A DNA stretch of 15,399 bases from a virus (Duplodnaviria > Heunggongvirae > Uroviricota > Caudoviricetes). The stretch's first letter is position 1, and every line of letters starts with the position of its first letter. Below, piece by piece: positions 13,220 through 14,373 of the stretch. The stretch is taken from the IMG/VR virus record IMGVR_UViG_2778261088_000008. One strand, 5' to 3'. A program made the translations under genes and the position numbers. Below the pieces are notes generated by a model. It was given only the letters and a program-made list of their open reading frames with translations. It did no database searches and was not told the DNA's origin.

Positions 13220-13666
13220 TTATCGTTTTTTCCCTGTTCGTTGACAGATAACAGGTTTTCTGTCTGTCAGTGCCAGAATCTGGCTTACCGGTATTTGCGT
13301 TTCATTCCATTAAAAAATCAGAACGCCGTGCGGCCTCAACACCCGAAAGGCTTCTTTAAATCTCTGTCGCGAATCATCACGCCAGGCATCTTTATTCAGC
13401 CGTCCATATTTCTTTCCCATCCAGGCGTTATCACCAACACTCTCAAGATGCGGAGGGTCTAATACAACCATCGAAAAAGATGCGTCTGCAAATGATAATG
13501 CACGAAAATCTGCGATAATGTCAGGGCTGATAATCAAGCGTCTCCCATTGCGTAATGTGTATCCTTCTTTTCTGATATCGCTGAATATCGCCCGTTCGTC
13601 AGACTTATCGAACCAGAACATGCGGCTGCCACAGCACATATCAAGAATGGTTGCCGGTGCACTCAC
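13220..13666 (-). pseudogene. DNA N6-adenine methyltransferase-like gene interrupted by an in-frame TAA
   Basis: ORF 13313..13666 (118 aa) has a SAM-binding motif-I-like LDMCCGS near the N-terminus and a motif-IV-like DPPH (VVLDPPH). It ends at TAA 13312-13310, but the frame stays open for 29 more codons (WNETQIPVSQILALTDRKPVICQRTGKKR) to TAA 13222-13220. ATG overlaps the upstream gene stop (ATGA). Confidence 0.5.
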
Positions 13667-14373
13667 TGCGCCACGTCCTGAAAATTACCCTGATAGAAAG
13701 CCAGTATGCGCTGCATAACTTCGCTCTTCCGGCACTCGCGACAGATTATGTTTAGGCGACTGTCGTAGCGACGTATTTCTCCGTCAGGTGATGACCAGAT
13801 AAGGTCCGGATCAACCACAGCAGGTTTCTTCACCTTTGCCCTCGAGAGTTTTTTGCGGGCGTTTTGCCAGTCCTTACGCGCCTGTTCAGAGGGGAATAAC
13901 CCGTAGCCGGAGTTGTATACATCGCCACTGGCTACCAGCTCGTCCCATTTTTCGCGGAGCTTTGACGGGCTCATGATGTTTTTTACCCAGAATGGATCTC
14001 GCTGAACCCGACCAAACATTTCGCAAATTTGTCTGTGGCTTCTGCCATCCAGCATCCGCATTGTGCGCACGTCATTGGCCCAGGCAGTCCAGTTAGCCTC
14101 CATAATTGCAGGCACTAGCGCCGTGAACTTTTCACGCTTATCCCTGGTGTCGATAGCCTTCCAGCGTTCAAATATCTTCACTCGATTAACGCCAAGCGCT
14201 CGCTGATCAATCGCGCCACCTTCATATGTGACACGCTGAACATCGATGTTCGGGCGCTCTTTCAAAGCCCAGAATGCTTCAGTGATTAATATCGTCGCCT
14301 GCTCCTGTGTCATTCCTGGTCGACATATCCAGGCATCCAGAGCCTCACGAGCCTGTTCAGGAGTGATTTTCAT
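13663..14373 (-). CDS. Hypothetical prophage early-region protein (236 aa)
   Basis: Intact ORF immediately downstream of dicC and translationally coupled to the methyltransferase-like gene. Basic segment (KDWQNARKKLSRAKVKK) and C-terminal CRECRK. Family not recognised. ATG 14373 overlaps the dicC 3-prime end by 17 nt; in-frame ATG 14313 is an alternative. Confidence 0.6.
   Translation of the reverse strand: MKITPEQAREALDAWICRPGMTQEQATILITEAFWALKERPNIDVQRVTYEGGAIDQRALGVNRVKIFERWKAIDTRDKREKFTALVPAIMEANWTAWANDVRTMRMLDGRSHRQICEMFGRVQRDPFWVKNIMSPSKLREKWDELVASGDVYNSGYGLFPSEQARKDWQNARKKLSRAKVKKPAVVDPDLIWSSPDGEIRRYDSRLNIICRECRKSEVMQRILAFYQGNFQDVAQ

Follow-up and report, generated by a model that had tools for sequence, protein, structure and literature searches.

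The 236-aa open reading frame (ORF) that follows the Cro-like gene dicC in this prophage is, with high probability, a three-part deletion fusion in a decaying Qin-type prophage and a functionless by-product of that decay. Its origin by deletion is virtually certain. Residues 1-93 equal residues 1-93 of YdaT, residues 94-147 equal residues 240-293 of an O-like replication initiator, and residues 145-236 equal residues 49-140 of a DUF977 protein, all with zero mismatches. The window, that is, the whole stretch of 15,399 nucleotides analysed here, is identical in sequence to contig NNXM01000081.1 from GCA_002486265.1, an E. coli draft assembly. It covers the immunity and early region of an E. coli lambdoid prophage of the Qin type.

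The ORF and its genomic setting

The features of the region are as follows (window coordinates).

14671-15078, plus strand: dicA, CI-like repressor gene, divergent from dicC (NCBIfam DicA, E=3e-70)
14620-14648, minus strand: sigma-70-like promoter-like site 5' of dicC (TTGACT, 17 nt, TATCTT), from a consensus scan only
14357-14587, minus strand: dicC, Cro-like, first gene of the operon that bears the chimera (NCBIfam DicC, E=1.8e-47; Pfam P22_Cro)
13663-14373, minus strand: chimeric ORF of 236 aa in the ORF list, ATG at 14373, TGA at 13663-13665
14095-14373, minus strand: segment 1, codons 1-93, YdaT-family (CII-like) N-terminal POU-like helix-turn-helix (HTH), 100% identical to YdaT 1-93
14094-14095, minus strand: junction B, a TA dinucleotide that joins ydaT codon 93/94 to O-like codon 240 (940-bp deletion; alignment to L001, the ATCC 8739 locus)
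13942-14093, minus strand: segment 2, O-like residues 240-293, part of the C-terminal domain (100% identity, phrog_391)
13934-13941, minus strand: junction A, short imperfect homology GA[A/G]CTGGT on the coding strand (ELV), where BLAST segments overlap
13666-13933, minus strand: segment 3, DUF977/Ren-like residues 49-140, the C-terminal two thirds (100% identity, Pfam DUF977, phrog_142)
13310-13666, minus strand: methyltransferase-like ORF of 118 aa with a GTG start (phrog_954, E=7e-58; PADLOC MTase_II, E=4.5e-45)

The earlier note on this DNA had described an intact protein at 13663-14373 that overlaps dicC by 17 nt, is coupled to the methyltransferase-like gene and sits in the slot for cII, O and P, directly after the Cro-like gene. 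The reading frame from ATG to TGA on the minus strand is confirmed, as are the 17-nt overlap with the dicC 3' end (14357-14373) and the coupling, in which the stop of the ORF and the GTG start of the methyltransferase-like ORF overlap by 4 nt (GTGA). The slot was also correctly named, and it is filled by fragments of a CII analogue, an O-like protein and a DUF977/Ren-like protein. The word "intact" does not hold: these fragments are 100% identical to parts of three parents, and 940 bp and 280 bp are missing between them. An alternative start at 14313 had been proposed as well. This codon is present as Met21, but the sequence comparisons better support 14373, because PGAP (NCBI) places the start of the full-length ATCC 8739 parent identically, also with a 17-nt overlap with dicC, and because the family alignment to PDB 3c4r begins at residue 2 of the ORF. 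Upstream, the promoter-like site falls within the divergent dicA-dicC control region, and published work describes DicA as the repressor of the dicC operon.

The methyltransferase-like ORF covers just positions 52-165 of the 229-position phrog_954 profile. The annotations of ATCC 8739 and phage PhiR42_1 include the same 118-aa ORF, so its short length is either native or the result of an old truncation common to the group. Between this ORF and the ISNCY element (window 12900-13300) there are small broken ORFs only, which represent further decay of the nin-like region. The ATCC 8739 counterpart (L001 579-1348) consists of a DUF7167 sequence with an internal stop and a frameshifted hypothetical protein. 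Relative to phage HannyBb, the window has a 3.3-kb insertion (8445-11717) with relB-relE, ydfV, flxA and the ISNCY transposase gene, and this block is flanked by two hok-like sequences (window ~8250-8444 and 11718-11908). In some Qin-like prophages, the methyltransferase block is replaced by a gene for a 763-aa AAA_13-type ATPase between DUF977 and hokD, for example at L148 4737-7028 (E. coli 20KM0223N) and at L144 4365-5306; this position may be a candidate slot for defence cargo.

Three parents in one reading frame

Profile searches recovered the three fragments as three separate signals that do not overlap along the protein. The parent of segment 1 is the 173-aa YdaT-family protein WP_000705358.1 of ATCC 8739, and the N-terminus of the chimera matches the CII-like family phrog_163 (E=8e-23). 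Its score against Pfam YdaT_toxin (PF06254) is below threshold (17.2 vs 21 bits), and the alignment to PDB 3c4r, which spans chimera residues 2-93, is weak (PDB matches at E ~0.06-0.08). Residues 84-147 match the O-like family phrog_391 (E=2e-32), and further O-like and DnaD-like PHROGs match as well. The C-terminal part is well above threshold for Pfam DUF977 (PF06163; profile positions 50-134 of 134, E=1.2e-15, 58 bits vs a threshold of 22.1) and matches phrog_142, which carries a Ren-like label. Profile positions 1-49 of DUF977 are missing from the chimera, whose DUF977 part is a fragment of a member and, as such, an incomplete member. Each of the three parents is a full-length member of its own PHROG family.

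The idea that the protein belongs to no recognised family is accordingly right in one respect and wrong in another. No single family accounts for it, and no NCBIfam profile matches it; fragments of YdaT, O-like and DUF977 proteins can nevertheless be identified within it. The earlier note had itself said that a clear match to a well-characterised family would speak against its reading, and the matches to phrog_391, phrog_163 and Pfam DUF977 are of this kind. Searches of other types added little. PADLOC defence models matched neither the chimera nor any of its three parents, and a PDB sequence search with the DUF977 parent returned chance-level matches only. AlphaFold2 on the chimera (32-sequence alignment) was uninformative, with a pLDDT of 44 and a pTM of 0.23. 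The score was low even across the YdaT part, which has crystallised homologues, and the run was therefore limited by its shallow alignment.

The undeleted module and the order of the deletions

When 1.5 kb surrounding the ORF served as the query, ATCC 8739 and many further strains matched with 99.9% identity, in three pieces spread across 2.7 kb. The window and the ATCC 8739 locus are collinear in pieces of 98.8-100% identity (window 13000-13941 = L001 1301-2242; 13934-14100 = 2515-2681; 14088-15399 = 3609-4920), and the 280 bp and 940 bp between these pieces are missing from the window. The undeleted gene order in ATCC 8739 and strain G5 is DicC, YdaT (173 aa), O (321 aa), DUF977 (140 aa) and methyltransferase (118 aa). 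The same undeleted module is found in the phage genome records of HannyBb (PP925841), PhiR42_1 (PV340562; host ECOR13) and mEp460. Synteny across Qin-like prophages and phages thus yields an intact three-gene module where the earlier note had assumed one intact gene. The parents are complete members of their families and occur in phage genomes on record, which identifies the undeleted arrangement as ancestral; the converse scheme, in which the intact architecture was derived by insertions, is rejected on the same grounds.

The path from the module to the chimera can be followed through a one-deletion intermediate, a 175-aa ORF composed of YdaT 1-93 and O-like 240-321 that was a cluster mate of the chimera in the exact-sequence look-up. 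In four loci, this 175-aa form lies beside an intact DUF977 gene and has flanks 99.8-100% identical to the window, one of which (2.6 kb) is 100% identical. The fusion (P0002-P0004; e.g. EFC6947520.1, HBA2771623.1) agrees with the chimera in its first 147 residues and in junction B, but it keeps the O C-terminus with a DnaT-like tail and a separate intact DUF977 gene, both of which the chimera lacks. It is the immediate precursor of the 236-aa ORF. Since the 175-aa loci carry only the 940-bp deletion and an intact DUF977 gene, the 940-bp deletion came first and the 280-bp deletion second. In the first step, the 940-bp deletion at TA fused ydaT codon 93 to O-like codon 240 and created the 175-aa ORF. 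In the second step, the 280-bp deletion across a 9-nt imperfect repeat fused O-like codon 293 to DUF977 codon 49 and created the 236-aa ORF. Junction A is an ordinary short-homology deletion, and its repeat GA[A/G]CTGGT encodes ELV in both parents. The sequences themselves thus show both deletions, the intermediate and what was lost.

A recurrent TA breakpoint in ydaT

Junction B is less ordinary. Its context is ...ATGGAGGC-TA-TCCGGA... at window 14094-14095, which is ydaT codon 93/94, and the ydaT-side breakpoint (...GGAGGC-TA; ...ATGGAGGCTA) is common to about 20 different junction types from many assemblies, K-12 ydfX included (loci compared: L013 from K-12, L014-L020, L031, L085, L133 and L144-L147). 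The partner sequences are diverse. They include, in the O-like gene, codons 94 and 240 and a later point that is out of frame; in ydfU, several positions; and in the ISNCY transposase gene, two positions. Other partners lie in a DnaC-like gene, the AAA-ATPase gene, the holin region and, out of frame, DUF977. A TA lies immediately before the join in every partner for which the undeleted context was found (at least 13), and the identity common to both sites at hot-spot joins is usually exactly 2 nt. There are 22 TA dinucleotides in ydaT, and the breakpoint TA takes ~20 of the ~33 junction types in a sampling that began from proteins containing YdaT residues 1-93 and is biased toward this breakpoint. 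Among the other TAs, codon 62 has three junction types and codon 73 has one, and the TAs three codons to either side are unused. Elsewhere in ydaT, breakpoints have 4-8 nt of ordinary microhomology and no TA. When viral contigs were scanned for the pattern, 105 loci were intact at the recurrent site and 3 carried such a junction there.

The nearest known counterpart is the ydfX/ydfW pair of K-12. YdfX (b1568, 96 aa), which has already been named the Qin YdaT homologue (PMC11879457), lies in the same Qin locus and operon after dicC and consists of YdaT 1-93 plus 3 foreign residues; it is broken at the same nucleotide as junction B of the window. The K-12 deletion is ~3.6 kb in window coordinates and ends out of frame in the ISNCY transposase gene (window 10514), whereas the window deletion is 940 bp long, ends in frame in the O-like gene and was followed by a second deletion. 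The K-12 region is L013 (NC_000913.3) 6175-6637, with counterparts at window 10336-10514 and 14095-14373. The ISNCY transposase, whose gene is intact in the window (10336-11643), survives in K-12 as a C-terminal stub, YdfW/IntK (b1567).

Could this breakpoint be the work of a dedicated activity? Site-directed breakage and rejoining at TA, whether recombinase-like, transposase-like or by a nuclease and ligation, is an alternative account of junction B and thereby of the origin of the ORF, though not of its nature. The convergence of so many junction types on one base and on one of 22 TAs, with a TA in all of the at least 13 partners of known context and mostly exactly 2 nt in common, speaks for such an activity. 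On these grounds, a conservative TA-to-TA exchange (by a serine-recombinase-like enzyme, a TA-targeting transposase-like enzyme or a nuclease producing TA overhangs) might fit better than ordinary microhomology deletion, a preference that we hold to be doubtful. Several observations point the other way. No candidate enzyme was found, the site is unlike the prophage att region and has no insertion sequence, and sampling from proteins with residues 1-93 favours precisely this breakpoint. In addition, some hot-spot joins have 3-6 nt in common, as in ordinary microhomology, and the window's own junction and the P0023-type junction, the only two searched for besides the K-12 type, are absent from complete genomes. 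We therefore regard directed TA breakage as possible but, on the whole, rather unlikely.

Specific candidates for such an activity were considered and rejected. A secondary integrase site has no support, as the breakpoint lacks similarity to the prophage att/int-proximal region. The surroundings of the nearby ISNCY element are without convincing terminal repeats related to the site, and no pix-like repeats resembling the breakpoint were found for the Pin-type invertase that these phages encode. A second copy of GAGGCTATC (window ~11872-11880, 5' of a hok-like gene) was considered as a partner, and the predicted junction between the two sites occurs in 0 of 5,426 genomes; L144, the locus that prompted this idea, is an ordinary hot-spot deletion into the AAA-ATPase gene. 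Folding of the DNA around the breakpoint gave weak structure only (z = -2.4).

What the deletions removed

Whatever the mechanism at junction B, the 940-bp deletion struck the replication module. Within the undeleted O-like gene, 23-nt repeats form an array with a spacing of 23-24 nt (L001 2933-3064); two copies fit CATCnGGnCATTTTGACCnGATG with at most 1 mismatch, and the remaining copies are looser. The array adjoins a stretch of 33% GC in which a 12-nt repeat occurs three times, and the whole origin-like region spans L001 2894-3064. The 23-nt repeats also encode repeated IGSK peptides. In phage lambda the origin sits within gene O, and by this analogy we infer that the repeat array and the AT-rich stretch likely form a putative origin. 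Both lie entirely within the 940-bp deletion, and a search of the window that allowed up to 3 mismatches found no iteron motif.

The same deletion also took the N-terminal three quarters of O and residues 94-173 of YdaT. [quoted passage not shown] This tail is identical to the C-terminus of host DnaT at 14 of 20 positions (PDB 2ru8, 6aep, 9zbt). The O-like initiator of Qin-type phages (L001 2427-2490, residues 301-321) ends in ...VNHISEPDTEIPPGFRG. No P or DnaC-like loader gene lies between O and DUF977 in HannyBb or PhiR42_1. The DnaT-like tail together with the lack of a loader gene suggests that the O-like initiator may mimic DnaT to reach host DnaB/DnaC.

For YdaT, the consequence of truncation can be gauged from a homologue. 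In YdaT of CP-933P, a hinge and a long helix after the POU-like domain make the tetramer, and the isolated DNA-binding domain (YdaT 1-96) is monomeric and causes no operator shift in electrophoretic mobility shift assays, EMSA (PMC9986795). Residue 93 of the chimera maps ~10 residues before the YdaT hinge, a position that is approximate given the weak similarity. With the origin-like array, the origin-binding part of O and the CII-like oligomerisation part lost, the prophage would no longer replicate.

Expression and function of the fused protein

Comparison with the three families makes clear how little of each remains. YdaT of CP-933P/Rac, a functional CII analogue (PDB 8bt1, 3c4r), resembles the chimera in lying directly after the Cro-like gene, as the YdaT-family genes of HannyBb and PhiR42_1 do, and in having an N-terminal POU-like HTH (PF06254, phrog_163). 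In contrast, the chimera is without the hinge and the tetramer helix past residue ~93, which CP-933P YdaT needs for DNA binding. The O initiators (phrog_391; the 321-aa protein of PhiR42_1, HannyBb and mEp460) have 54 residues of their C-terminal domain in identical form in the chimera, but the chimera has no origin-binding N-terminus, no iteron array and no DnaT-like tail, and so it cannot be an initiator. Of DUF977 (PF06163; YdaW of Rac), chimera residues 145-236 are the C-terminal two thirds, and the first 48 residues are missing. Its Ren-like function is a PHROG label only: a literature search turned up a single paper that names DUF977 together with prophages, in passing, and no experimental one. 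The chimera thus fails the defining features of the YdaT/CII-like and O-like families and is a fragment only of DUF977.

Since the native start and the coupling to dicC are retained, the chimera would probably be translated once DicA repression is lifted. From its sequence we infer that the product very likely has no activity of its own, because the oligomerisation element, more than half of the O C-terminal domain and the first 48 residues of DUF977 are gone.

An opposite view is that the fused protein gained a function, either as a dominant-negative or decoy factor against superinfecting Qin-like phages or in a host role as a YdfX-like monomeric POU protein. Both fusions are in frame, with native start and coupling. 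The starts of ydaT, the O-like gene and DUF977 are 502 and 1006 nt apart, which puts the genes in successive +1 frames, and deletions of 3n+1 length (940 and 280) therefore keep the native frames. Retention of the frame has a chance of ~1/3 per deletion and ~1/9 for both. That the frame was kept twice, with no further disruptions in the 175-aa and 236-aa ORFs, could hint at selection; the lineage is too young for a test of selection, and the chance expectation is 1/9. Two further observations agree with a gained function: exactly YdaT 1-93 is kept in many independent lineages, K-12 YdfX included, and DUF977 carries the PHROG label of a Ren-like exclusion protein. Against this, the protein is confined to one near-clonal lineage, and most other YdaT 1-93 variants run into out-of-frame or unrelated sequence, with nothing in common past residue 93. 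The lone POU domain of the homologue binds no DNA, a comparison with a protein that is only distantly related (E ~0.06-0.08). Furthermore, 54 of ~120 residues of the O C-terminal domain are left, the DnaT-like tail is gone, and PADLOC gave zero matches. A gained function is thus improbable, and the reading as a functionless deletion product is preferred.

Distribution of the exact ORF

The exact 236-aa protein was read on 7 contigs (from three NCBI drafts and from Logan assemblies) of one near-clonal lineage, with no more than 5 SNPs relative to the window across an aligned stretch of up to 11.7 kb. Sequences spanning junctions A and B were found in 0 of 5,426 complete E. coli genomes; in 2,127 of these genomes, ydaT runs uninterrupted through the position of junction B. 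The ORF of 236 aa is thus rare and arose recently in a single lineage. The suspicion that it is an assembly artefact, a set of chimeric joins in a short draft contig of 15 kb (NNXM01000081.1) with neither junction in any complete RefSeq E. coli genome, can be dismissed as extremely improbable, since the same protein and junctions recur in separate assemblies, three from NCBI and three from Logan that derive from other sequencing runs, the joins have 2-9 nt in common, which is below what an assembler could bridge, the 175-aa one-deletion intermediate occurs on 12 further contigs, and the finished K-12 genome holds an analogous junction at the same base.

Implications for Qin-type prophages

As a protein, the chimera is one more fusion remnant of decaying prophages, a familiar kind. 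It should be annotated as a fusion remnant (YdaT-N::O-like fragment::DUF977-C) and not as a hypothetical protein or a "DUF977/YdaT toxin family protein", and the same deletion logic also explains K-12 YdfX and YdfW. The locus provides a dated three-step series, from the intact module through the 175-aa fusion to the 236-aa ORF, the first step of which is a Qin-type prophage losing its origin-like array and most of its initiator gene. Loss of the replication module removes in situ replication from a prophage that retains the toxic functions dicB, dicF, ydfD, hokD and relE. The recurrent TA breakpoint is the sole element of possible specialist interest. If breakage there is indeed directed, Qin-like prophages would repeatedly shed their replication module along this route, and a dedicated mechanism behind it would be a new way of disarming lambdoid prophages.
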